This document shows, piece by piece, positions 41,631 to 63,966 of a stretch of DNA of 64,000 nt. A program made the position numbers and the translations under genes. This stretch comes from an uncultured Alphaproteobacteria bacterium (GTDB lineage: Bacteria > Pseudomonadota > Alphaproteobacteria > CAAHEQ01 > UBA3637). The notes beneath the pieces are model-generated. The model did not search any database. It was not told the DNA's origin and saw nothing but the letters and a program-made list of their open reading frames with translations. Location of the stretch: assembly GCA_944391565.1 (NCBI GenBank), contig CALXUB010000019.1:6919-70918 (forward strand). Direction: 5' to 3'. How positions within the stretch are numbered: the first letter of the stretch is position 1; every line of letters begins with the position of its first letter.

Positions 41631-43793
41631 TTATTCCTCCAGCTCGTAAATTTCTTCCTGAAGCGAGTTTGCCAAACTGTCCAAATCCGTATTTTCACGT
41701 TGTGCCACAATCCAATAAGGCACAAACGGCGCTCGCGGCAATGAACATTTTTTGCGCATTCCTTTATCTAAATACCAACGCGGCGCATCCGCCAAAATCG
41801 GACGATTCAAAAAGCCCTGCATAATCACATACTGCTTCAGCATATCCAAGCTCATCATTTCGGAAGCACCCACCACTTGTGTGGCCTGAAGCTGTTTGGA
41901 TACGTTAGCGGACAACTTCGGATTAAACCCAAAAGATTCCTGTTGCGACACACTGGCCGTTTGAATGGTTTTGGTACCGATCATTTTCGAAAAACGTTCG
42001 GCCGTTTGTTCATTGTTCTGCGCCAAAATCACTTTCGCCGCCGTTGTTGTAATAATCGTTTCCAAATCATCCTTACCATATTGACCGGAAATCTGTCCCA
42101 AATCCTGCCCGATCAACAAGTAAGACACTTTTTGTCCGCGTCCCACGGCCGGACCGTCTTTCACTGCGGCCAGCTTCGGCATCTGCGGGAATTCGTCCAA
42201 CACGAATAAAACAGGATAAGGTCCCGATTTAACCCCATCCGTTCCGACAAAGTTTGGCGGATTGGCAATCAAAAAAGAGCTCATCAATTCAACGAACATA
42301 CCGGTAATCACCGACAAAGCCCGCGCATCTACCTGATTTACGGACAAATACACGGAAATTGGTTTCATCTCACCCGTTATAGGATCCTTCATACCGCGCA
42401 AATCACGGAACGTAAAATCCGAAAAGCGCGTACGAGCCCGAACGGCCGAGTTTTTAAAGACACCGATCCCCGTTAAAGCCGTTGATAAAATAGAGCCGCG
42501 TTCCTTATCCGGCGTGCTGGCCAGCTGGTTCATTTCCAACATCGCGCGTTGAGAATAGTGAAACCGGGAACACTCGTTCACGGCGAAATCCAACACATCC
42601 CGCATAGGATCTGCCAACGCTGCCATTTGATCACCCGCATCGGCACGGCGTTTAATATCTGCCGCGATTTTCATTTGTGTGTCATTTAACCAATCCAAAA
42701 TCATGGCAATACACGGCTCGGCCCCATGCCAATACTCGGGCAATCCCTCCCAAGTGCCGATCGGAGCATAGCTGTCATACGTCAGGGTTCCCTGCTGCAA
42801 AGCATCCAACGCCGTCCGTGCGCTCATATCGGGCATATCGGCATAATAAGTAGCCAAAACCTTAGCATCCTCGGCATCAAAGCTGCCATCCATCAAACGA
42901 GCCACAAAGTAGTCGTTGGCGCGGGCACGTTCACACTTACTGGCAATAAAATGCAAAAAACCGGACATGGCGTTTCGACCGGTCTTGGACCAGTGCGGAT
43001 CCGCGCCGCCCTTTGGTTCTTCGACAATCACGGCCACCATGCTGTCGATATACATGTCGCGCGCCGGACCGGCAGGCGGCAGACAGCTGGGTGACAACGG
43101 GTTCCAAGACGGATAAAACTCCCCTTTTTCAGGGTTATCTTCCGCACCCCAGTTAATAATAAACACAGGCCCCTGCGTCGCACGATAACCGGAGGTGTTA
43201 AAGCACAATTCCGGCTTGGGGTCATTGACGATAATACTCATACCGGGTGATTCCAAAATTGTCGGTATCACAACCCCCACCGTTTTACCGGTTCCGGGAG
43301 GTGCCACCACCAAAGCTGACAATGTTTCCGGCATCTTTAAAAGCTTGCCCTTAAACCGACCGAGAACAATAACAAAGCCATTAAATAACTTCATCTTTTT
43401 AATATCGGCATAGGTGGCAAGTCGCCCGCCGCCGAAGGTTTTTAACATAAAGTCATTCGGATTTAAAATAGCAGCAATCGCAAAAATCCCCGCCCCGATG
43501 ATCCACGGCAGAATTAAAATGAACACACGGGCAAATTGTCCGACCCGCAGACTTTTGGCAAGACCCAGGTTATACTGAGAAAATAAAAACTTCGGATTTT
43601 TAACCGACTCGACGAAAAAGTTAATGGAAGTCGCCAAAGACTGTCGACTGAGGCCGTTTTCAATAATATGATTGATCGGAATAATCAAGAAAAATAAAAC
43701 AACCGCCGTCACCAGACCGATAAAAGCCCATACGACTAAAAACGATACCGCCTTATCGCGATCAGCATATTCCGCAGCACGTTGAAAAACCAT
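41631..43793 (-). CDS. type IV secretion system coupling protein (VirD4/TraG family)
   Basis: 720 aa with N-terminal transmembrane helices, Walker A (VVAPPGTGKTVGVVIPT), and T4CP-like length and architecture. No other T4SS genes are in the window. Confidence 0.75.
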   Translation of the reverse strand: MVFQRAAEYADRDKAVSFLVVWAFIGLVTAVVLFFLIIPINHIIENGLSRQSLATSINFFVESVKNPKFLFSQYNLGLAKSLRVGQFARVFILILPWIIGAGIFAIAAILNPNDFMLKTFGGGRLATYADIKKMKLFNGFVIVLGRFKGKLLKMPETLSALVVAPPGTGKTVGVVIPTILESPGMSIIVNDPKPELCFNTSGYRATQGPVFIINWGAEDNPEKGEFYPSWNPLSPSCLPPAGPARDMYIDSMVAVIVEEPKGGADPHWSKTGRNAMSGFLHFIASKCERARANDYFVARLMDGSFDAEDAKVLATYYADMPDMSARTALDALQQGTLTYDSYAPIGTWEGLPEYWHGAEPCIAMILDWLNDTQMKIAADIKRRADAGDQMAALADPMRDVLDFAVNECSRFHYSQRAMLEMNQLASTPDKERGSILSTALTGIGVFKNSAVRARTRFSDFTFRDLRGMKDPITGEMKPISVYLSVNQVDARALSVITGMFVELMSSFLIANPPNFVGTDGVKSGPYPVLFVLDEFPQMPKLAAVKDGPAVGRGQKVSYLLIGQDLGQISGQYGKDDLETIITTTAAKVILAQNNEQTAERFSKMIGTKTIQTASVSQQESFGFNPKLSANVSKQLQATQVVGASEMMSLDMLKQYVIMQGFLNRPILADAPRWYLDKGMRKKCSLPRAPFVPYWIVAQRENTDLDSLANSLQEEIYELEE

Positions 43794-48291: not shown

Positions 48292-48403
48292 CTGACAAAA
48301 AACAAGCGCGAAGATAAAAAGGGCCTTTTTGCCGCCCCTAAACCCAATTCAAAAAGGCCCTTTTTCGCTATGAATTTGACTATTATTAAATAGAGCAGCA
48401 AAC

Positions 48404-48615
48404 AGGCCGCCCGTGGAAATCTTCGCGCGGCGCGGACAGCTTATCAATCAAAAGCGCGCTTCCTGGTTCTCAGGGGGGCCCAGGGGCGGGCTGATTGTCT
48501 AAAAAAACTTTTTTACTGATTTATTTTAAAACAAGCGCACTTGTTTAAATAAAGGAACGCTTAAATATGAAGGAAGGCCGCCCGCGCGCCGCGAAGAATT
48601 CGCGGGCGGCCTTTC
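48404..48615. repeat. pair of related ~35-nt GC-rich elements in inverted orientation (48404-48435 and 48576-48611); the second forms a perfect 11-bp hairpin + T-run
   Basis: aggccgcccgtggaaatcttcgcgcggcgcgg versus ggccgcccgcgcgccgcgaagaattcgcgggcggcc-tttc. These are GC islands in an AT-rich intergenic region. Confidence 0.4.
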
Positions 48616-53341: not shown

Positions 53342-53929
53342 TTAAAACTGATTTTGAATATATCGATGCAACGTCACCCAACGACAGTTCATCAAACGGG
53401 CAATTTCGGCTTTGGAAACGTTTTGAGCCAGGAGTTTTTTTATTCTTTCGTGATTTTCCAAAAGATGTTGGTAGGAAAAACCAAACGGGCGCCCCAGATG
53501 TTTTCCTTCTTCTTTTAACCGCTGCAACGAGTTTTTGGTTCGTTGAGAAATAAGCTGCCGTTCGATTTCTCCGGCCAGACAAAACGCAAAAGCCAAGACT
53601 TTGGATTGGATGTCTCCGCCCAAGCGATAATGCTCTTTTAAAGTCCAAATCCGGCAGTCTTTTTCCAAACACTGCTGTAAAATACTCATGACCTCCAACA
53701 AATTGCGTCCCAAACGAGAAAGCTCGGTTGCAATCAGAACATCTCCTTTTTTCAGCTGTTTAAGCAGTTTGCCCAGTTTTCGGTTGTTTAATGTTTTTCG
53801 GGAAGAAATAATTTCTTCGATCCATTTATCGATTTTCATATTTTCTTTTTTGGCAAAAGCTAAAATTTCATGTTTTTAATTTTCAACATGCTGATGGTCG
53901 GTGCTGACCCGAATATATGCGTAATACAT
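53342..53929 (-). pseudogene. serine recombinase (DNA invertase/resolvase family) gene disrupted by in-frame TAA
   Basis: ATG at 53927-53929 encodes MYYAYIRVSTDHQHVEN and then a TAA stop (53876-53878). Translation resumes in-frame with ...KIDKWIEE… (track ORF 53342..53839). It aligns codon-for-codon with the intact paralog at 62451..63050, where a Q occupies the stop position. Confidence 0.7.
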
Positions 53930-54012
53930 TGTTTTTCCCTTATAAATAAGTTGCTCACATTGATAAGAACTAACAATAAGGATTAAAGATTGTCTTAAAA
54001 AACACTGTCTTT

Positions 54013-54141
54013 ATAAACCAGCGTTTATTGATATATGCATTTATATGTAAGATATGAAATATTATTTAAATTTTTATTAATAAAATAGTATTTTTACAAC
54101 TTTTTTGTTTTTTTTTATTTTATTCATAAACGCTGGTTTAT
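54013..54141. promoter_or_regulatory. candidate invertible promoter switch: perfect 16-bp inverted repeats (54013-54028 ataaaccagcgtttat; 54126-54141 ataaacgctggtttat) flanking a 97-bp AT-rich segment
   Basis: Inverted repeats read directly from the sequence. Each repeat is itself a near-palindrome (ataaac-NNNN-gtttat). The segment carries TTGTAA-N17-TAAAAA on the minus strand. It lies between the recombinase pseudogene and the ATG of the giant surface protein at 54172. Confidence 0.5.
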
Positions 54142-54171
54142 GCACAGGGCCCATAACAGTGATGAGACAAA

Positions 54172-57100
54172 ATGATTAAAAAAATACTTTTCAGTTTAGT
54201 GACCTTTGGATTGATTTTCAGCAATTCAAATGTTTCCGCACAAGTAAGACCGATGAACATTGCGCAAGCGAATCCCCGAACAATGATATATCATTATGCA
54301 CAAACCGGGAATCTTCAAAATCTGCTTTTATTAAAAAGACAAGGCTATGCCATCGACCTTGTTGATGAAAAAGGCAACAGTGCGTTATGTGAAGCCACCT
54401 GGCGACAGAACCAAACAGCCGTCGATACACTCATTCAAGCCGGCGCGGATACAAACAGCACCTGCATGCAAGAAATCCCGCAATCATATAAAGACGCCGT
54501 CAACATTACTTATATGGACGAACCCATCAACACACTTCGCAAACCCTCTAAGGCCGGCACAATTTGCTCGATCAGCAACAACGGTACACGAACTTGCACG
54601 CCTGTTTTGCAAGACGGCACTGTTGTTGCCGGAACCGACAAAGCCTCTGATCGTGCAGCAGCTGCCTATGTCATCGATCACAGCATCGGAACAACAGCTG
54701 CCGGAACCAATGAAGGCCTCAGCACCGGCGTTAAAATCGGTATCGGCATCGGTGCAATCGCCCTGATCGGCGGCGGTATCGCATTAGCCGTCGGTGGTGG
54801 TGGCGGCGGCGGCGGAAAAGGGAACGGTTCAACACCTACCGACCCCACTCATCCTGATAATCCGGACAACCCGGACAATCCCGGCCCCGATAATCCGGAT
54901 AACCCGGACAACCCCGATAACCCGGATAACCCCGATCCTGATAATCCGGATAACCCCGATCCTGATAATCCGGACAAGCCCGACCCTGACAATCCGGACA
55001 AGCCTGATCCTGACAATCCGGATAACCCCGACCCTGACAATCCGGACAAGCCTGATCCTGACAATCCGGATAACCCCGATCCTGATAATCCGGACAAGCC
55101 TGATCCTGATAATCCGGATGAACCAACCAAAATATGCAACGCCGGTGAATTCCTGACTGAAGCGGAAACATGCGAAAAGTGCGGACTGGGATATTACGCC
55201 AAACACGGATCGAACATCTGTACACCGTGCGCAGTCGGCAGCTATGCCAACCAATTAGGTTCCATTGTTTGCACGGCTTGTCCCATCGGTCGAAGCACTT
55301 CCGGGATTGCTTCCACTTCTTGCGACGTTTGCGCGACCGGCTACAAACAACAAGGAGAGTCGTGTCTGCCGTCATGCCGAGCCGGAGAATACTGGGACGG
55401 CAGCATGTGCGCGGCTTGTCCGCAAGGCACCTTCTCTATCGCCGGTGCAACAACTTGCTCGAAATGTCCCGATGGATATACAACGGCAGAAGAAGGCAGT
55501 TCTTACTGCGATGCCTGTCAAGAAGGGTATGTCTGGCTGGACGGATTTTGTGAGCAACAATATGAATTAGATCCCCAAGCTGTTTGTCAGCCCGGGTATC
55601 GACCGAACGATAACGGCGGATGTTCTCCCTGTCCGATTGATTCCTATGGCAGCGACGGCACCAATTGCTATCGTTGCCAAACCGGCTATACGACAAACAA
55701 AACAGGTTCCACCAGTTGCGATATTTGCGAGGAAGGATACTATTCCGACAATGGTGTTTGCCGGCCCCATTGTCAAGCCGGATATTATTGGGATGGCAGC
55801 AACTGTCAAATATGCGCGCCCGGTTCTTACTCCTCTAAAGGCAGTTTAAGTTGTACCGCGTGTTCCAGAAACACTTACCAACCATCAGCCGGTCAATCAA
55901 CATGTATTTCTTGTCCCGTCGGTTCATTGACCGAATCTGCCGGTGCGACAGCCATTGAACAATGCAACACTTGCTATGGCGGTTATATTTTAAAAGATGG
56001 TTCTTGTCAAACCTGTCCGGCCGGATCTTATGCGGACAGCTCATCCAACACCTGTGTTCAATGCCCGATCGGACAATACAGTCCATCTGAGGGACGAAGC
56101 GCTTGTTCTACATGTCCGGAAGGACAGACAACAACCGCCCTCGGATCGACAAGTTGCAGCTGTGACACAGCCAACGGTTATATTGCCGTCGGTGATGAAT
56201 GCCGCCTGAAACAATATTCCTGCGAAGCCGGCAATTATTGGGACGAGACAGAAGGCAGCTGTCAAACTTGTGAAGCTGGAACGTTTTCGGCTTCCGGTGC
56301 GAACTACTGTACCGCCTGCCCATATGGTTATTTCAATGCTTCAGCCGGTGCCGCCGTCTGCCAGGCATGTCCTCAAGGATGGACAACGTCATCCAACGGC
56401 ATGACAAAATGTGATATTTGTGCCGATGGGTGGACCATGGAAAACGGACAATGCGTCACAACCTGCCCGGCCGGACAAGTTTACAACGGTTCGGCGTGTG
56501 AAGCCTGTCCCATCGGCAGCTTTGCACTCAAAGGGGCTTCTTCATGTACCCTCTGTCCGCAAGGCTGGACAACATCCGCGGCCGGCGCCCTCACCTGTGA
56601 CCTCTGTGCGGACGGTTATCAACTGAATTCATCCACCGGCAATTGTGTTCATCAGGATGAAGGCGTTTGTGACGCCGGATGGGCTTGGAACGGGACTGAA
56701 TGTCAACCCTGCCCGGCCGGTGAATATTCCGAAGGAGAAAACTCCCTGTGCCACAAGTGTGCCATCGGGTATTATTCTACACAGGAAGGCAGCACCAGCT
56801 GCACCCGCTGTCCGGTTGGATCTACGACACAGGAAGAAGGTTCTACCAGTGCCTTGCAATGCAACATCTGCGGCATCGGATATTCTTGGTCCGCAAGTGA
56901 AGGAAAATGCGTCACGGAATGTAAGAACGGTATGTTTTGGAACGGATCGACCTGTGAACTTTGCCCGGCCGGAACCTATACCAGAGGCTTAGAAAATAAT
57001 GGCGCTATTCCAACTTCGTGCCAACCTTGTTCCGCCGGCACTTATTCTGCAATAGAAGGCGCCACATGGTGTTCATATTGCCCAAGTCACTCAACCTCTG

Positions 57101-60100
57101 TTGAGGGAGCAACCGACATATCCTTTTGCACTTGCGAAGACGGCTATTATAACACAGATAAAGTAACCGTTAATTGTGTGCCGCATTGTCAAGCCGGTCA
57201 AAGATGGACCGGAACCGAGTGTGTTGACTGTGCGGCAGGGACTTATTCATCCTCCAGCGGGGCAACTGAATGCTACCGATGCTTTTACGGTTCGATTTCC
57301 GAAGCCGGCGCAACCAGCTGTACATCTTGTCCCGAAGGTTTTTCGACTTCTGCCTTAGGATCAGACACTTGCGATATTTGCGCTGCGGGATATGAGGGAG
57401 ACGGCACAACTTGTACAATCTGTTCTGCCGGCACCTATTCGAATGCTTTGACGAATCGCACATGTATGCCTTGCGCGATCGGAACGTATATCAGTACTGA
57501 CGGCGGATCTTCCTGCACGGCTTGTCCGACCGGTTATACAACCGAAACAACAGGCTCCTCCGACGTCGAAGCTTGTCGTATCTGTTCGGAAGGCTACATC
57601 ATGAAAAACGGTAAATGCGTCGCCAACAACAAATCATGTGCCGCCGGTGAATATTGGGCAGGTGATTCCTGTGCTTCCTGCGCTGCGGGAACGTATTCCG
57701 TGGAAGGTTCCATTGCCTGCTTACAGTGCCCGAAAGGTACATATACTTTGGAAAGCGGAAGTCAAAGCTGCACATCCTGTCCCGAAGGATTTACGACCAT
57801 GGGTTTCGGATCCACAACGGCAGACGCTTGCTCAATCTGCGCGGAAGGATATAAGTCCGACGGCGCGGGCGGATGCGTCTTGGCACGGGAAACATGTCCC
57901 AGCGGAGAATACTACAACGGCTTTCAGTGTGTCTCGCTTCCTGAAAACGCCCAAACCGATGCAGATGACATCCGAGGATGGACCTGTGTCAGCGGTTATA
58001 CCCGCGTAGGGGATAACTGTATCTTGACGACAGATTTAAACATTACGACCAATCCGCAAGACACAACATTAACATCAACCATGACGGCAACCCTTTCGAA
58101 TGCCGGATCGGTGCTGGCTGTCAATGACGGCACGATTGAGATTTCCGAAACTGAAGGCAGCTCCAACAGTCTGGTCGGCATGAAAACAACGGGGTTTGGA
58201 TGGGGAAGTTATGAGGCCTATATCGTCAACAACGGCACCATTCAAATGACATCAGAGCAGGCTTCATTGACCGGTATTGACGCCGCTAGCCATTTTGCCG
58301 ATAACAACGGCACCATCCGGTTATCGTCCAACTCGGGCAGTTTAAATGGTATAGTAGCCAAAAAAGGATATAATTACGGCCAAATTGAGTTGACCGGCAG
58401 CAAATCTATTAACGGGATGAGCAGCAACTCTTATAACTCTGAGTTAAAAAATTACGGCTCTATTTTGTTAAACGGAACAAACAGCAATTATCTTTGTGGT
58501 ATCTCTTATAACGATACGAGCGATGTAATGGAGAACTACGGAACCATCCAAATCAATTCTTTTGAAGGAAGTAGTATGAGCGGTATGTCCGGAGACTTAT
58601 CCGTCAACTATGGCACCATTCGTATTCAAGATTACCAAAACATTTCCACGTCTTCAAGCTACCTGACAACAGGAATGAACGGCGGGAAAAACTATGGAAA
58701 TCTGTTCATAGATGTGCAAAACAGTGAAAAAGAGTATATTGTCAGCGGCATTCATTCCGGACAAAACTACGGAATGATTGACATCTATGCTCGAAATCTG
58801 GAGAAAAACACCCAATTATCCGGAGCGAATGCTTCAACTAATTTCGGAACCATTTCGATTGTCGCGGATCATGTTAAAAGCATCACCGGCATACTAAACG
58901 GCAACAATTATGGAACGATTCGGATGAACACTTCCGACACATCGACGGTCACCGGATTGAATATACAAAACAACGGAATGATAGAAATAATTGCATCCGG
59001 CGCGACAAATGTCTACGGTGTCTATAGTCCCTCTTTTTATGATACTCATAATAACGGCATGATCAAGGTGACATCCATTGGAAAAGAGACAAACACCACT
59101 GCCGGTTTGTACAACACAAAAAACTACGGTGACGTTTATGTCAGCGGATCCGGACAATATTTGTATGGTTCCAAGGGAATATCTGCTTCCAATTACGGAA
59201 ACATCACACTGACCGGCTCTGCCGATTATGTTTACGGAATGGATGGCTATTATAACAGCGGCACGATCCGTATCGATGCCTCCAAAACATCTTATGTTGT
59301 CGGCATGAAGCCAAGCACTATTTCCACGAATGAAGGAAAAATCAGCATCATCAACAGAGGAAATAACGCTGTTTACGGCATCTTGAATTATATTTCGACA
59401 ACAAATGCCGCCGGAGCGGAAATCAATATCGAAAACACCGGAAATGGAACGGCTCACGGCATTTCGGGCGGCTATTCCGTCTATAACGACGGAACAATCC
59501 GAATTACCAATACCGGCAACGGAACAGTCTATGGTATCGACAATGCGACTTCAGTGACGAACAGAGGTCTGATTGAAATTACCAATACCGGCACGGGGCA
59601 AGCCTATGGCATTTATCTGAATGGAGCCGACAAATTCGTTTCCAATGAAGGAACTATCTCCATCAACGGCACTTCCTACACAGGCAACGCACCGTCCGGC
59701 AATTTCATTGTTCTGGAAAACAACGCCAGCTTGGCAACCAGCGGAACATTATCAAGCTCGGGTGCACTGGATTTGAACGCTTTTTCACCGGACGGAACAG
59801 GGCGCATTGCATTGATGCCCAACGGCCGTGTAGAGGGCGAATCTATCTCGGGAGATTTACACATCGACGCATCCAACGTGACGAACGGATTTAAAACCGC
59901 TTACACACTGTCGGATGCCGTCAAGGCCAAAGAAACAAGCAATTTAAACTTAATTTCCGACTCGGCTTTATTTAATGCCGATTTGGCCGACAACGGCGAA
60001 GATGTCATTATGCAAATGAAATCTTTTGACCAAGTGACTGCCAACAAAAGCCTGGCTGATTTTTTGACGGCAAATTATGCGGCTGCCAACAACGAAACAC

Positions 60101-61029
60101 TCTTTAACGAGTTAAAATCAATTGAAACGCAGAAAGCTTTAAGCTCCGCCGTTAAATCCATAACGGGCGCCGAAATCATGACACGGTTCGCCAACGAAGA
60201 TTTAACCGCTATTCGTGATGTCAACCAAACCATGAACAGCCTGATGTTTGCCAATAACGACAAACCGATGTTCGAAGCAACCGGCGCTTTAGACACCTTC
60301 AGCTTTAAAAACAACGATCAATCCTCGGCGCAATATGCGTTAGCCAACAAACGGATCACGCCGCGCCTTAAAATCGGCTATGCCATGAGCAACACGAACA
60401 TGAGCACGGACGATGATCACGACACCACACGGCGAAACAATATCTTCCAAGTTTTCACGCCCGTCAACTATGACCGCTTTGGCTGGCAGTTCATCTCAAC
60501 GCCGCAAATCGGATATGCTCGCGCGCATTATACGCGTCAAGGATGGAACTCCATGTCCTATGACGGTATTTTGGAAAAAAGAATCTTTGCTTTGATGAAC
60601 GAAGCGCGCTACCCCATCGATTTAGGAAAATGGGACGTGTCGCCGACAGTCGAATTGAATGCAATCATCTATAACCAAAGAGGACATGAAGATAAAAAAG
60701 CATTTGCCCTCAGAATACCGTCAGATAACAGTGTCTCCCTGGAAGCCGGTTTGGGTTTCTATCTGCAGCGAAAGTTAGGTGATTTGAATGTTTCCATGGG
60801 GCTGATGCTTTATCGAGAATTTGCCGACCCCTACACCATGAAGGCCGGCATGCAAGAGATGAACGGAACATTTGACTTGTATGATGAAAAATATTCTCCT
60901 TACCGTGGAACAGCCTCTTTCCTTTTCGGCTACGACCTCGGCAGCTTTAATCTGTATGGTTCCCTGAAACACTTTATTGAAAATGACACGCATACCCATT
61001 TGAAAGCAGGTGTGAAATATGCCTTCTGA
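54172..61029 (+). CDS. giant autotransporter-like surface protein with tandem ephrin-receptor-like (GCC2/GCC3-type) cysteine-rich repeats
   Basis: 2285 aa. The layout runs: signal peptide (MIKKILFSLVTFGLIFSNSNVSAQV); an ankyrin-like repeat (GNSALCEATWRQNQTAVDTLIQAGADTN); a Gly-rich hydrophobic stretch; a (PDNPD)n linker; ~900 aa of repeats C-x2-C-x2-G-x-Y-(S/T)-x4-6-C-x2-C; a passenger-like region with NYG repeats; and a ~290-aa C-terminal beta-barrel-like domain ending …LKAGVKYAF. Confidence 0.75.
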   Translation: MIKKILFSLVTFGLIFSNSNVSAQVRPMNIAQANPRTMIYHYAQTGNLQNLLLLKRQGYAIDLVDEKGNSALCEATWRQNQTAVDTLIQAGADTNSTCMQEIPQSYKDAVNITYMDEPINTLRKPSKAGTICSISNNGTRTCTPVLQDGTVVAGTDKASDRAAAAYVIDHSIGTTAAGTNEGLSTGVKIGIGIGAIALIGGGIALAVGGGGGGGGKGNGSTPTDPTHPDNPDNPDNPGPDNPDNPDNPDNPDNPDPDNPDNPDPDNPDKPDPDNPDKPDPDNPDNPDPDNPDKPDPDNPDNPDPDNPDKPDPDNPDEPTKICNAGEFLTEAETCEKCGLGYYAKHGSNICTPCAVGSYANQLGSIVCTACPIGRSTSGIASTSCDVCATGYKQQGESCLPSCRAGEYWDGSMCAACPQGTFSIAGATTCSKCPDGYTTAEEGSSYCDACQEGYVWLDGFCEQQYELDPQAVCQPGYRPNDNGGCSPCPIDSYGSDGTNCYRCQTGYTTNKTGSTSCDICEEGYYSDNGVCRPHCQAGYYWDGSNCQICAPGSYSSKGSLSCTACSRNTYQPSAGQSTCISCPVGSLTESAGATAIEQCNTCYGGYILKDGSCQTCPAGSYADSSSNTCVQCPIGQYSPSEGRSACSTCPEGQTTTALGSTSCSCDTANGYIAVGDECRLKQYSCEAGNYWDETEGSCQTCEAGTFSASGANYCTACPYGYFNASAGAAVCQACPQGWTTSSNGMTKCDICADGWTMENGQCVTTCPAGQVYNGSACEACPIGSFALKGASSCTLCPQGWTTSAAGALTCDLCADGYQLNSSTGNCVHQDEGVCDAGWAWNGTECQPCPAGEYSEGENSLCHKCAIGYYSTQEGSTSCTRCPVGSTTQEEGSTSALQCNICGIGYSWSASEGKCVTECKNGMFWNGSTCELCPAGTYTRGLENNGAIPTSCQPCSAGTYSAIEGATWCSYCPSHSTSVEGATDISFCTCEDGYYNTDKVTVNCVPHCQAGQRWTGTECVDCAAGTYSSSSGATECYRCFYGSISEAGATSCTSCPEGFSTSALGSDTCDICAAGYEGDGTTCTICSAGTYSNALTNRTCMPCAIGTYISTDGGSSCTACPTGYTTETTGSSDVEACRICSEGYIMKNGKCVANNKSCAAGEYWAGDSCASCAAGTYSVEGSIACLQCPKGTYTLESGSQSCTSCPEGFTTMGFGSTTADACSICAEGYKSDGAGGCVLARETCPSGEYYNGFQCVSLPENAQTDADDIRGWTCVSGYTRVGDNCILTTDLNITTNPQDTTLTSTMTATLSNAGSVLAVNDGTIEISETEGSSNSLVGMKTTGFGWGSYEAYIVNNGTIQMTSEQASLTGIDAASHFADNNGTIRLSSNSGSLNGIVAKKGYNYGQIELTGSKSINGMSSNSYNSELKNYGSILLNGTNSNYLCGISYNDTSDVMENYGTIQINSFEGSSMSGMSGDLSVNYGTIRIQDYQNISTSSSYLTTGMNGGKNYGNLFIDVQNSEKEYIVSGIHSGQNYGMIDIYARNLEKNTQLSGANASTNFGTISIVADHVKSITGILNGNNYGTIRMNTSDTSTVTGLNIQNNGMIEIIASGATNVYGVYSPSFYDTHNNGMIKVTSIGKETNTTAGLYNTKNYGDVYVSGSGQYLYGSKGISASNYGNITLTGSADYVYGMDGYYNSGTIRIDASKTSYVVGMKPSTISTNEGKISIINRGNNAVYGILNYISTTNAAGAEINIENTGNGTAHGISGGYSVYNDGTIRITNTGNGTVYGIDNATSVTNRGLIEITNTGTGQAYGIYLNGADKFVSNEGTISINGTSYTGNAPSGNFIVLENNASLATSGTLSSSGALDLNAFSPDGTGRIALMPNGRVEGESISGDLHIDASNVTNGFKTAYTLSDAVKAKETSNLNLISDSALFNADLADNGEDVIMQMKSFDQVTANKSLADFLTANYAAANNETLFNELKSIETQKALSSAVKSITGAEIMTRFANEDLTAIRDVNQTMNSLMFANNDKPMFEATGALDTFSFKNNDQSSAQYALANKRITPRLKIGYAMSNTNMSTDDDHDTTRRNNIFQVFTPVNYDRFGWQFISTPQIGYARAHYTRQGWNSMSYDGILEKRIFALMNEARYPIDLGKWDVSPTVELNAIIYNQRGHEDKKAFALRIPSDNSVSLEAGLGFYLQRKLGDLNVSMGLMLYREFADPYTMKAGMQEMNGTFDLYDEKYSPYRGTASFLFGYDLGSFNLYGSLKHFIENDTHTHLKAGVKYAF
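54837..55125 (+). repeat. tandem ~15-nt DNA repeat (cc(t/c)ga(t/c)aatccggacaa(g/c)) encoding (PDNPD/PDKPD)n linker inside the autotransporter gene
   Basis: About 19 consecutive near-identical units are visible. All three frames remain open across the tract, which produces the overlapping repeat ORFs listed in the track. Confidence 0.8.
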
Positions 61030-61380: not shown

Positions 61381-61586
61381 AAACCCGTCCGTTGGACAGA
61401 TTCTCCTCAATGCGAAAAAAGCCGGAATGTAAAACGGCTGACGCTCGTTTTATCCCTTCGGGACCGTCCCAAGGACGTCGTTCCCGCGGGCAAAATATCG
61501 CCCGCGCTTACCGAACCTCCGGTTCGCTTCAACGCCTGTCGGCGATTATAAAATAAAAACCCGTCCGTTGGACAGGTTTTTATTTT
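61381..61586. repeat. 19-bp direct repeat aaacccgtccgttggacag (61381-61399 and 61568-61586) bracketing a GC-rich structured ~170-bp segment; second copy embedded in a 12-bp IR (aaaataaaaacc…ggtttttatttt)
   Basis: Exact repeat seen directly in the sequence. The intervening segment contains the hairpins cgcgggc-aaaatat-cgcccgcg and agccg…cggct. Confidence 0.4.
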
Positions 61587-61905
61587 ATGGTGCGGAAAGC
61601 CGGATTCAATCCATTTTATAAATAAGCCTTGATTTTTCTTGCTTTTTCAATTTGTTGCATTCCAAAATTACACAGTTTGCATCACAATCAAATCACATGT
61701 TTATTATATATCAAAAAAGTATGGATGTAAGCCTTTTTTTGTCATCCCGATAAAAAAACAGGCAAGGTTTGGAGCCGATGGCAGTATGAATATCCACCTT
61801 TTTGCAATCATTCGCTTAAAAATTGGCTTTAAATTGTTAAATTTTATCGGGAGAGGAACAAAATCTATCCATAATTAAAAAAGAAGTCTGTTTTGTTTGA
61901 TTTTT

Positions 61906-62450: not shown

Positions 62451-63050
62451 TTAATGTGGAAAAATGTTTTCAGACCTGATGTACCTATGAAGCGTAATCC
62501 AAGAACAGTCCATCAGTCTGGCTATTTCAGCTTTTGATACATTTTTATTTAATAGTTCTTTGATTTTTTTATCTTTCTTTTTTAATTTTTGATATGAAAA
62601 GCCATAAGGACGTCCTAAGTGTTTGCCTTCATCTTTTAAGCGTTTTAATGAATTTTTTGTTCTTTCGGAAATAAGCTGTCGTTCAATTTCGCTGGCAATT
62701 GAAAAAACAACGGCCAGCAATTTACTTTGAATATCAGCACCTAAGTGATAATTTTCTTTCAAAGTCCAGACTTGACAGCCTTTTTCAAGACAATTTTGTA
62801 AAATACTCATAACTTCCAATAAGTTGCGTCCCAGTCTGGATAATTCGGTTGCAATCAGAATATCGCCTTTTTTAAGACGCTTTAATAATTTGCCTAACTT
62901 CCGTTCATTTAAATGCTTTCGAGAGGATATTTGTTCTTCAACCCATTTATTGATCTGGATATTGTTTTCATTTGCAAAAGTTAAAAGTTCATGCTGTTGG
63001 TTGGCTGTATTTTGTTTGTCTGTACTGACCCTGATATATGCGTAAATCAT
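62451..63050 (-). CDS. serine recombinase, DNA invertase/resolvase family (Hin/Gin/Pin-like), intact
   Basis: Track ORF 62451..63083. The likely start is MIYAYIRVSTDKQ (catalytic-serine motif YIRVSTxxQ). A C-terminal HTH (SKAEIARLMDCSWITLHRYI). About 200 aa, typical of small serine invertases. Confidence 0.8.
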   Translation of the reverse strand: MIYAYIRVSTDKQNTANQQHELLTFANENNIQINKWVEEQISSRKHLNERKLGKLLKRLKKGDILIATELSRLGRNLLEVMSILQNCLEKGCQVWTLKENYHLGADIQSKLLAVVFSIASEIERQLISERTKNSLKRLKDEGKHLGRPYGFSYQKLKKKDKKIKELLNKNVSKAEIARLMDCSWITLHRYIRSENIFPH

Positions 63051-63234
63051 CGTAAAATCCTTATAAAAGTTGTTAAACACCATTATAAGAACTACTAAAA
63101 ATTGTTAAAAAATCACTGCTAAAAATAGACGCTATACATATATCACCGTCTATTTGATACATTGAAACAACACAAAAAATGGTTTCCCTAATTTTACTCT
63201 TTCGGTCATTATATTTAATTAAATTAAGGAATGC

Positions 63235-63282
63235 AAGCTTTTCCATCTAAACCACCGAAAAAACCTACAAAATCGGTGGTTT
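63235..63282. promoter_or_regulatory. 11-bp inverted repeat (aaaccaccga…tcggtggttt) abutting the start codon of the methyltransferase-like gene
   Basis: taaaccaccg-aaaaaacctacaaaa-tcggtggttt-ATG. This is either a stem-loop or an operator overlapping the RBS region. Confidence 0.35.
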
Positions 63283-63966
63283 ATGAATAGAATATCAGAC
63301 CAAATTGTATCAAAAAAACGGGTTGCAGATCATGGAGAGGTTTTTACCAATCCACGTGAAGTAAATGCGATGTTAGACCTTGTAAAACAAGAGACAGAGC
63401 GTATTGAAAGCCGTTTTTTAGAGCCTGCTTGTGGCAAAGGTGCTTTTTTGGCAGAAGTTTTACGTCGAAAATTAGCTGTTGTAAAAAGCAGGTATGCTAA
63501 AAGTCCTTTAGAATACGAACGTTATGCCATTTTAGCCATCAGCAGTATTTATGGAATCGATATTTTGGAAGATAATGTTGCCGATTGTCAAAATGAAATG
63601 CTGTCAATTTTTAAATCGGAATATAAAGCCGCTTTAAAACAAGAGTGTTCAGATGAATGCTTAAATTCAGCTCAATTCATCCTTCAAAAAAACATTGTTT
63701 GGGGTGATGCATTGACTTTAAAACGTGTTGATCATCCGGATCAGCCTATCGTTTTTTCGGAATGGTCGGCTGTTAATGGTAAAATGATGAAACGACGTGA
63801 TTATTCATTTAGCCAAATGGTTAACTGTTCAACTGAAGGCTTGCCCTTGTTTAATGTGAATGACAAGGGGGAGGATGTTTGGGCTCCAAGGCCGGTAAAA
63901 GAATTTCCATTAACACATTATTTGAAATTAGCAGAGGCAGAAAGAGAAGTTAATGATGCGGCCTAA
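63283..63966 (+). CDS. N6-adenine DNA methyltransferase-like protein (gamma-class motifs X and I present; catalytic NPPY/F motif not found)
   Basis: 227 aa. GEVFTNPREVNAML resembles motif X and EPACGKGAFL resembles motif I (FxGxG). Where motif IV is expected, the sequence reads IVWGDALT. Confidence 0.4.
   Translation: MNRISDQIVSKKRVADHGEVFTNPREVNAMLDLVKQETERIESRFLEPACGKGAFLAEVLRRKLAVVKSRYAKSPLEYERYAILAISSIYGIDILEDNVADCQNEMLSIFKSEYKAALKQECSDECLNSAQFILQKNIVWGDALTLKRVDHPDQPIVFSEWSAVNGKMMKRRDYSFSQMVNCSTEGLPLFNVNDKGEDVWAPRPVKEFPLTHYLKLAEAEREVNDAA

Follow-up and report, generated by a model that had tools for sequence, protein, structure and literature searches.

Does the short AT-rich segment in front of a giant surface protein gene of an uncultured gut alphaproteobacterium act as an invertible promoter switch? 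This question is raised by a locus on contig CALXUB010000019.1, of which a stretch of 64,000 nucleotides (the window, to whose numbering all positions refer) was analyzed. The segment comprises 97 bp, is bordered by 16-bp inverted repeats, and lies between the gene for a small serine recombinase and the start of an autotransporter gene encoding 2285 amino acids (aa). An initial annotation, made from the window's letters, had proposed that inversion of the segment turns the autotransporter on and off. Public assemblies allow a prediction from raw sequence of this kind to be checked without new experiments, and among these assemblies the segment was found in both orientations: the 97-bp stretch is a real flip-flop switch in natural populations. 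The region as a whole is most probably a promoter inverton, operated by a recombinase related to the master DNA invertase Mpi. The evidence for the inversion is presented first, followed by the recombinase, the relatives of the switch, its promoter and its target gene, the explanations that compete with this one, and the comparison with known switches.

The repeats and the segment between them

The left recombination site (IRL), ATAAACCAGCGTTTAT, occupies positions 54013-54028, and its exact reverse complement, ATAAACGCTGGTTTAT, forms the right recombination site (IRR) at 54126-54141. The invertible segment between them (54029-54125) has a GC content of 11%. Once imperfect flanks are counted, the match between the two repeats reaches 21 nt at 90%. 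Each copy is itself nearly palindromic (ATAAAC-N4-GTTTAT), and IRL, reading ATAAAC-CAGC-GTTTAT, is dyad-symmetric about an asymmetric center. From serine recombinase chemistry, the crossover dinucleotide of IRL would be the AG at 54020-54021. The outer half-site of IRR runs into an ATG that is conserved throughout the family of related switches. The distance between the recombinase start (53929) and the autotransporter ATG (54172) amounts to 242 bp. The initial annotation had thus described this part of the locus correctly, i.e. a perfect 16-bp repeat pair around 97 AT-rich base pairs, near-palindromic repeats, and a gap of about 240 bp between the flanking genes.

Perfect inverted repeats of at least 16 bp with a gap of at most 200 bp occur twice in the window, as the switch pair and as a hairpin at 48316-48365, and none was obtained in 60 composition-preserving block shuffles. 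The search for further copies of the site, which the initial annotation had recommended, was carried out within the 64 kb: allowing at most one mismatch, ATAAAC-N4-GTTTAT matches the two switch sites and nothing else, the chance expectation being 0.12.

Inversion in natural populations

Assemblies of the same species were collected via contigs encoding the intact recombinase allele (P0001), three members of its 90% cluster, or the truncated allele found in the window. This yielded 30 assemblies, each from a different sample; 27 of them show the orientation of the segment, one contig is too short, and two Logan contigs end at the repeat. The orientation of the window (orientation A) is present in 22 assemblies in addition to the window itself, and the opposite one (orientation B) in five (L008, L009, L042, L046, and L047). 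In orientation B, the 96 nt enclosed by the repeats correspond exactly to the reverse complement, with the flanks and the repeats being the same wherever they are present. The inversion boundary of these natural variants falls inside IRL. A mixture of both orientations of 54029-54125 had been named beforehand as the observation that would confirm inversion; it was found here among assemblies (22 plus the window versus five), not among reads.

The distribution of the two orientations over single nucleotide polymorphism (SNP) variants is informative as to how often the segment has turned. The variant denoted TACGAC shows orientation B in L008 and L009 and orientation A in L041 and L044, and the variant denoted GCGTTT shows orientation B in L042, L046, and L047 and orientation A in L014. 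Both orientations therefore exist inside two separate SNP lineages, so that inversion must have occurred repeatedly. The two Logan contigs without a call (L005 and L012), which stem from the runs SRR28753485 and SRR25477699, terminate precisely with the final base of IRL. If both continuations coexist in one sample, a de Bruijn graph branches at the end of a repeat, and the ends of these contigs lie at the branch point that is expected if the orientations are mixed within a sample.

Besides the inversion, the locus varies in its homopolymers. A poly-T tract at 54108-54116 comprises nine residues (T9) in the window, in L006, L007, L010, L014, and L045, and in the partial segment of L083; all other full-length segments, including the five inverted copies, carry T8 and are 96 bp long. 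A link between T8 and invertibility was considered and dropped, as five inverted copies are too few and too lineage-bound. Codons 3-5 of the autotransporter gene contain an A7 tract (54178-54184) that is shortened to A6, causing a frameshift, in L042, L046, and L047, which belong to one SNP lineage and all show orientation B. The A7/A6 tract may represent a second ON/OFF layer, acting by slipped-strand mispairing. In L002 and L003, an IS1595-family transposase gene and a methyltransferase gene (together ~2 kb; ~3800-5900 in L002) are inserted at the poly-T tract of the segment, placing the switch repeats 2066 bp apart.

The adjacent recombinase

The gene next to the left repeat (53342-53929, minus strand, 195 codons) encodes an Mpi-like small serine recombinase and is inactivated in the window by a nonsense codon. 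As the initial annotation had supposed, it is a serine recombinase (pseudo)gene: the product contains the PF00239 Resolvase domain (E 3e-31), and codon 18 (53876-53878) is an in-frame TAA derived from CAA. If the stop is repaired to Gln, the protein scores 269.1 bits on the NCBIfam model NF009949 (master DNA invertase Mpi family), slightly below its cutoff of 272. Near relatives reach 273.4, 276.3, and 282.9 bits and pass this cutoff, and a homolog from Bacteroidales scores 341. By these scores, the clade of the window recombinase lies at the margin of the Mpi family. Among relatives of solved structure, the Gin invertase (4m6f, E 9e-13) matches best; the catalytic Ser motif YIRVSTDHQ, the SRLGRN (RLGR) motif, and the DNA-binding region at the C-terminus can all be aligned between the two. 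The protein thus combines the catalytic Ser domain and the C-terminal helix-turn-helix of small serine recombinases, the HTH_38 score being under the Pfam cutoff.

The intact allele P0001, encoded in other assemblies, is 100% identical to the repaired translation. On the nucleotide level, the window gene differs from the intact copy of L001 at three positions, the CAA to TAA change among them, and because of this small distance the inactivation is probably recent. The nonsense allele was found in the window and in L083, both in orientation A, and the gene is intact in most assemblies of the species. The adjacent recombinase would be the enzyme that flips the segment; the pairing of recombinase and switch, with co-varying sites, is conserved in relatives.

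Between the recombinase start and the left repeat lies a leader (53930-54012, minus strand), whose length is conserved across the family. In relatives, this leader harbors the presumed promoter of the recombinase gene itself, together with a palindrome that overlaps the ribosome-binding site. In the window, no recombinase-directed promoter passes the criteria of a consensus scan of 53800-54300. A palindrome, CTTATAA ... TTATAAG, lies immediately upstream of the recombinase start (53930-53975) and is conserved in the leaders of relatives, where one arm coincides with the -10 box of the recombinase promoter and the other overlaps an AAGGA ribosome-binding site. This palindrome may serve as an operator or as an RNA hairpin that controls recombinase synthesis.

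Relatives of the switch in other gut bacteria

A scan of GTDB genomes with the recombinase yielded 14 relatives, the source species not being among them, and a scan of metagenomes yielded 11 loci, none from the same species. These 25 loci were examined together with ten assemblies each of the two species denoted P0036 and P0004. Relatives of the recombinase reside on contigs of metagenome-assembled genomes (MAGs) titled Alphaproteobacteria, originating from roe deer, rabbit, and other samples. In most of the closer relatives the arrangement is the same and consists of the recombinase gene, the leader, a site, an AT-rich segment, the inverted site, and the target gene. In nearly all of them the site core lies ~92 nt from the recombinase start. 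The family consensus of the site is CATAwAyCAsCGTyTAk, and the site sequence co-varies with the recombinase clade, e.g. AAAGACCGGTTTT in a group with 65% identity. The ATG at the end of the right repeat is conserved in the family, and in several relatives the target open reading frame (ORF) starts there.

The distances between the site centers range from 112 to 143 bp in the family. The window switch is the shortest (113 bp, or 112 bp with T8, versus 119-143 bp in the other switches sampled), in accord with the initial annotation, which had called the segment unusually short. No helical phasing rule is apparent in the distances of 112-143 bp.

Both orientations occur in at least four further groups besides the species of the window. 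The promoter faces the recombinase in seven and the target in three of the ten assemblies of the P0036 species, and the same numbers were obtained for the P0004 species. In a third group, it faces the recombinase in L018 and L033 and the target in L017. L027 and L035 show the orientation opposite to that of L034 and L039.

The targets of the relatives comprise an adhesin-like giant protein, GT2 glycosyltransferases, a sulfatase-type membrane enzyme, an acetyltransferase, MmeI/Eco57I-type restriction-modification and helicase genes, methyltransferases, and a small lipoprotein. Functions of this kind are typically found among phase-variable genes. In L019 and L020, the target is a protein of 211-214 aa that by eye is resolvase-like with a C-terminal helix-turn-helix but without the catalytic Ser motif (IIGYLDNxQ). 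Possibly, this is a regulator derived from a recombinase and subject to phase-variable control.

In the P0004 species (L073-L082), a G4/G5 tract was observed in the GGAGGGG ribosome-binding/early-coding region of the target, just past the right repeat, and the promoter spacer is polymorphic by 1 nt (17 versus 18). Homopolymer variation hence accompanies the switch in a second species too. Two relatives were found in MAGs of other phyla. L025, a Gastranaerophilales MAG, carries a 70%-identical recombinase together with the same type of site (AAACCACCGTTTAT) and a target of the GT2 class, and L029, a Bacteroidales MAG, encodes a 55%-identical homolog with a true Mpi score. The occurrence of relatives in these MAGs suggests that the cassette has spread horizontally between gut phyla.

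The promoter and the polarity of the switch

On the minus strand, the segment contains the hexamers TTGTAA (54099-54094) and TAAAAA (54076-54071), separated by a spacer of 17 nt. This TTGTAA-N17-TAAAAA (54071-54099) is the probable switch promoter; an A-rich tract precedes it, and in the window it faces the recombinase. It was already pointed out in the initial annotation and gains weight from its alignment with TTGCAA-N17/18-TATAAT of homologous switches, namely those of the P0004 species, the P0036 species, and the window's second locus. Other relatives show TTGCAw-N17-TAtrAw at the corresponding place. A consensus scan of L065 returned two sites only: the segment promoter, directed toward the target, and TTTCCA-N17-TATAAT in the leader, directed toward the recombinase and presumably the recombinase's own promoter. 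This conservation points to a promoter located in the segment.

Since the homologous promoter faces the recombinase in the window orientation, the window copy (orientation A) is probably OFF for the autotransporter, and orientation B would be ON. The initial annotation had proposed the same polarity, with the promoter reading away from the autotransporter at present and being aimed at it by inversion; judged by homology, this is the better-supported assignment.

The autotransporter gene and its upstream reading frame

The target gene (54172-61029, plus strand; assigned from Pfam matches and the translation) encodes a protein of 2285 aa with a signal-peptide-like N-terminus, an Ank-like region, PDN repeats, eight cysteine-rich Ephrin_rec_like repeats, a repetitive passenger, and a C-terminal beta-barrel. 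The last 406 aa, scanned alone, match PF03797 (Autotransporter beta-domain) with an E-value of 1.3e-11 and 45 bits at a cutoff of 26; this domain was not found when the whole 2285-aa protein was scanned at E 0.001. The C-terminus of the protein gave no sequence match in the PDB. PF03797 and the signal-peptide-like N-terminus are the features of a type Va autotransporter, and the C-terminus, read from the translation, ends in ...YAF. The C-terminal match to PF03797 supports the initial description of the downstream gene as a giant autotransporter.

Between the switch and the target, an upstream ORF of 11 codons (MHRAHNSDETK*, 54140-54175, plus strand) was read from the sequence. It starts at the ATG that ends IRR (54140-54142), and its sequence is identical in all assemblies inspected. 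Its TGA overlaps the autotransporter ATG (ATGA, 54172-54175), which suggests translational coupling of the 11-codon ORF to the autotransporter.

Proposed mechanism and alternative explanations

The observations can be combined into the following scheme. The small Mpi-type serine recombinase, encoded divergently beside the switch, would bind as dimers to the two dyad-symmetric 16-bp sites. The dimers would form a synaptic tetramer in which both strands are cut at the central dinucleotide, and rotation and rejoining would flip the 97-bp segment. This cut-rotate-rejoin chemistry of serine recombinases is established knowledge. The central dinucleotide reads AG in one of the sites and CT in the second; this asymmetry would set the sites as inverted and lead to inversion, not deletion. 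The segment would carry one outward-reading promoter of the sigma-70 type. In orientation B, transcription is expected to pass through the right repeat and the 11-codon leader ORF into the autotransporter gene, which would be ON; in orientation A, that of the window, the promoter would read toward the recombinase gene, leaving the autotransporter OFF. The extreme AT richness and the A-tracts of the segment may, speculatively, aid bending. Because the cognate recombinase carries a nonsense codon, the window switch is predicted to be locked in orientation A, unless the 73%-identical paralog encoded 9 kb away acts in trans.

Several points weigh against the promoter inverton as outlined here. The orientations were called from consensus assemblies, not from reads, and mixing within a population is backed indirectly, by the contig ends. 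The ON/OFF polarity rests on homology, and the -10 hexamer of the window, TAAAAA, is weak. The opposite strand offers a better consensus match, TTTACA-N17-TATTTT (54093-54121), which in the window orientation is directed at the autotransporter. Both the window and L083 carry a pseudogene in place of the cognate recombinase, so that the switch may no longer operate in this genome. Finally, the loop of ~113 bp between the site centers is shorter than the persistence length of DNA, which leaves synapsis by a serine invertase unexplained. The plus-strand match gives rise to a reading in which the switch is real and its polarity is reversed or two-level: TTTACA-N17-TATTTT would drive the autotransporter in the window orientation, the T8/T9 variation in its spacer would tune promoter strength, and inversion would lower expression of the gene or pass it to a weaker promoter. 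The match agrees with the consensus at 9 of 12 positions, including the key A2 and T6 of the -10 hexamer, it is the sole sigma-70 match in 53800-54300, the poly-T tract in its spacer does vary among assemblies, and the window orientation is the commoner one. However, a single match is fewer than the 3.6 expected by chance in this AT-rich region, and no counterpart of the plus-strand match was seen by eye in relatives, whose segments carry an unambiguous TTGCAA-N17/18-TATAAT on the strand corresponding to minus. Moreover, the recombinase-facing orientation is also commoner in three other species and at the second locus of the window. A reversed or two-level polarity is thus considered unlikely.

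A more serious competitor is the view that the element is a dead relic in this genome, with a truncated recombinase, a frozen orientation, and old inversions that became fixed between strains. It agrees with the nonsense codon 18 in the window and L083, both of which show orientation A with T9, and with the window's second switch-like locus, which has degenerate repeats and a single orientation in nine of nine copies. On the other side stand the intact recombinase in most same-species assemblies, the distance of just three nucleotides between the window allele and an intact one, both orientations inside the same SNP lineages, the contigs that break exactly at the repeat, and the presence of an intact paralog. 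We assign this reading somewhat less than an even chance; it bears on the present genome and not on the nature of the element. Far less probable is that the repeats are not recombination sites at all and instead delimit a miniature transposable element or, as paired operators or as an RNA stem, regulate the two divergent genes. Terminal inverted repeats around a short AT-rich body would suit the first of these, and each repeat is a palindrome like the sites of dimeric regulators. Nevertheless, a miniature inverted-repeat transposable element was rejected, as it would be present in single copy (just two sites of this kind in 64 kb), no target-site duplication is visible at its ends, and its position relative to the recombinase gene is fixed across species. 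The operator and terminator readings were discarded since they do not predict exact inversion, and a match to an Rfam family is lacking. An exact inversion with unchanged flanks is predicted by none of the transposon, operator, or RNA-stem models, and the natural inversions contradict them, which makes this group of explanations highly improbable. The promoter inverton is therefore retained as the preferred explanation.

The second module and other features of the window

A second switch-like module is located at 62451-63966. It starts with an intact paralogous Mpi-like recombinase gene (62451-63050, minus strand), whose product is 73% identical to the first one and scores 260 bits on NF009949. 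The leader is homologous to that of the first module and is followed by the site-like sequence ATATATCACCGTCTAT with its core at 63144. The segment measures 131 bp from center to center and harbors a perfect TTGCAT-N17-TATAAT facing the recombinase. The right site, AAATCGGTGGTTTAT, is degenerate and merges into the ATG (63283) at which a putative DNA methyltransferase starts. Eco57I-type and T5orf172/helicase genes come after the putative methyltransferase gene in other assemblies. A single orientation was seen in all nine copies examined, and the module is apparently fixed. Its recombinase, encoded ~9 kb away from the first switch, would be the sole candidate in the window for flipping that switch in trans. 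In a subfamily comprising this module (63249-63283) and the upstream regions of L063-L072, a third site core, ACCACCG, was noticed inside the segment, 14 nt from one repeat; it is always situated behind the promoter and forms a local palindrome with the nearby repeat. A role as accessory recombinase site is possible.

Further products encoded in the window are BamA, LolCE, DnaE, and a VirD4-like coupling protein. The gene of this VirD4/TraG-type protein lies at 41631-43793, and GC content is lower (0.35) over the final 2 kb of the window; from ~40 kb onward, the sequence may belong to an integrated conjugative or otherwise mobile region. The hairpin at 48316-48365, a perfect 16-bp inverted repeat with a loop of 18 nt, is followed by a GC-rich palindrome at ~48578-48612 (within 48574-48613). 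The motif CCCGTCCGTTGGACAG is present twice, at ~61386 and 61551 (region 61386-61590), with the second copy being part of a terminator-like stem. Rfam (at the gathering threshold) and tRNA scans of the window returned nothing, leaving a reading as RNA elements unsupported, and an exact look-up of a neighboring 452-aa protein found nothing on record.

Comparison with known switches

The initial annotation had likened the locus to ON/OFF switches of the Hin/fim type. The invertible-switch part of this comparison holds; as the closest model, Hin and fim are replaced by Mpi, given the near-cutoff score on NF009949. Mpi is described as a serine recombinase that inverts 13 regions, among them seven promoters of polysaccharide loci (PMC4747536; PMC10403206). 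The locus described here resembles Mpi of Bacteroides fragilis in having a recombinase in or at the edge of NF009949 and a short promoter segment between inverted repeats, and both systems serve surface structures in a gut bacterium. In contrast to Mpi, a single master enzyme with many distant sites, each recombinase is found here beside its own switch. If the related site in the second module is set aside, the 64 kb contain two sites of the switch type only, and the one-recombinase-per-switch layout argues for local action. Further differences concern the host, an alphaproteobacterium with -35/-10 boxes of the sigma-70 type, unlike the -7/-33 type boxes of Bacteroides, as well as the target, an autotransporter, and the segment length of 97 bp. 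The segments of B. fragilis measure ~170-230 bp, and the 113-bp loop is roughly half as long as the Mpi substrates there.

With Hin/hix of Salmonella and Gin/gix of phage Mu, the locus shares a small serine recombinase consisting of an N-terminal catalytic domain and a C-terminal helix-turn-helix, and dyad-symmetric sites with an asymmetric center. The segments inverted by Hin and Gin are ~1-3 kb long, contain or adjoin the recombinase gene, and need an enhancer bound by Fis. Here, the segment has 97 bp instead of kilobase size, the recombinase gene lies outside it, and the similarity to Gin is distant. A short invertible promoter segment upstream of genes for surface structures is also found in fimS of Escherichia coli (inverted by FimB/FimE) and in the flagellar and cwpV switches of Clostridioides difficile (RecV). 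These segments comprise 154-314 bp. Unlike the Resolvase-domain serine recombinase of the present locus, the enzymes of fimS and the RecV switches are tyrosine recombinases. The invertible switches of C. difficile mediate ON/OFF phase variation (PMC5386303). Invertons are widespread in gut bacteria and enriched near surface genes, as cataloged with PhaseFinder and DeepInverton (PMC11602134; PMC11892184). One of them, in Akkermansia muciniphila, has 16-bp repeats beside two autotransporter-domain genes and by the published coordinates a segment of ~158 bp (PMC11892184); the present locus resembles it in repeat length and in the neighboring autotransporter gene, and its segment is shorter (97 versus ~158 bp).

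A literature search found no paper describing an alphaproteobacterial family of Mpi-like cassettes. With this locus, promoter inversion of the Mpi type reaches beyond Bacteroides into uncultured gut Alphaproteobacteria, where the cassette fronts adhesins, cell-envelope enzymes, and restriction/defense systems. At the autotransporter, expression could be changed by several routes, i.e. promoter inversion, A7/A6 and T8/T9 variation, insertion of a mobile element, and nonsense mutation of the recombinase, a multiplicity that would be consistent with variable selection on the display of the surface protein. Being so short, the segment lends itself as a natural, compact substrate to studies of how a serine invertase synapses sites ~113 bp apart, and it could serve as a small part for engineered switches. 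More tentatively, one may picture a portable, self-contained phase-variation cassette of uncultured gut Alphaproteobacteria that was transferred to Gastranaerophilales. Its invertase would flip a promoter segment below the persistence length (112-143 bp) without a Hin-type enhancer, and whatever target lies behind it would receive its start codon and ribosome-binding region from the outer half of the right site. The promoter would alternately feed the target and the recombinase gene, resulting in orientation-dependent feedback on switching. This wider picture is a conjecture that we hold to be possible and on the doubtful side.

Promoter invertons with an Mpi-family serine invertase form a class that is already known, and the locus joins it. 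It is set apart from the other members by the alphaproteobacterial host, the cassette with one recombinase per switch, the very short segment, a recombination site that appears to double as start codon, and the homopolymer variation.

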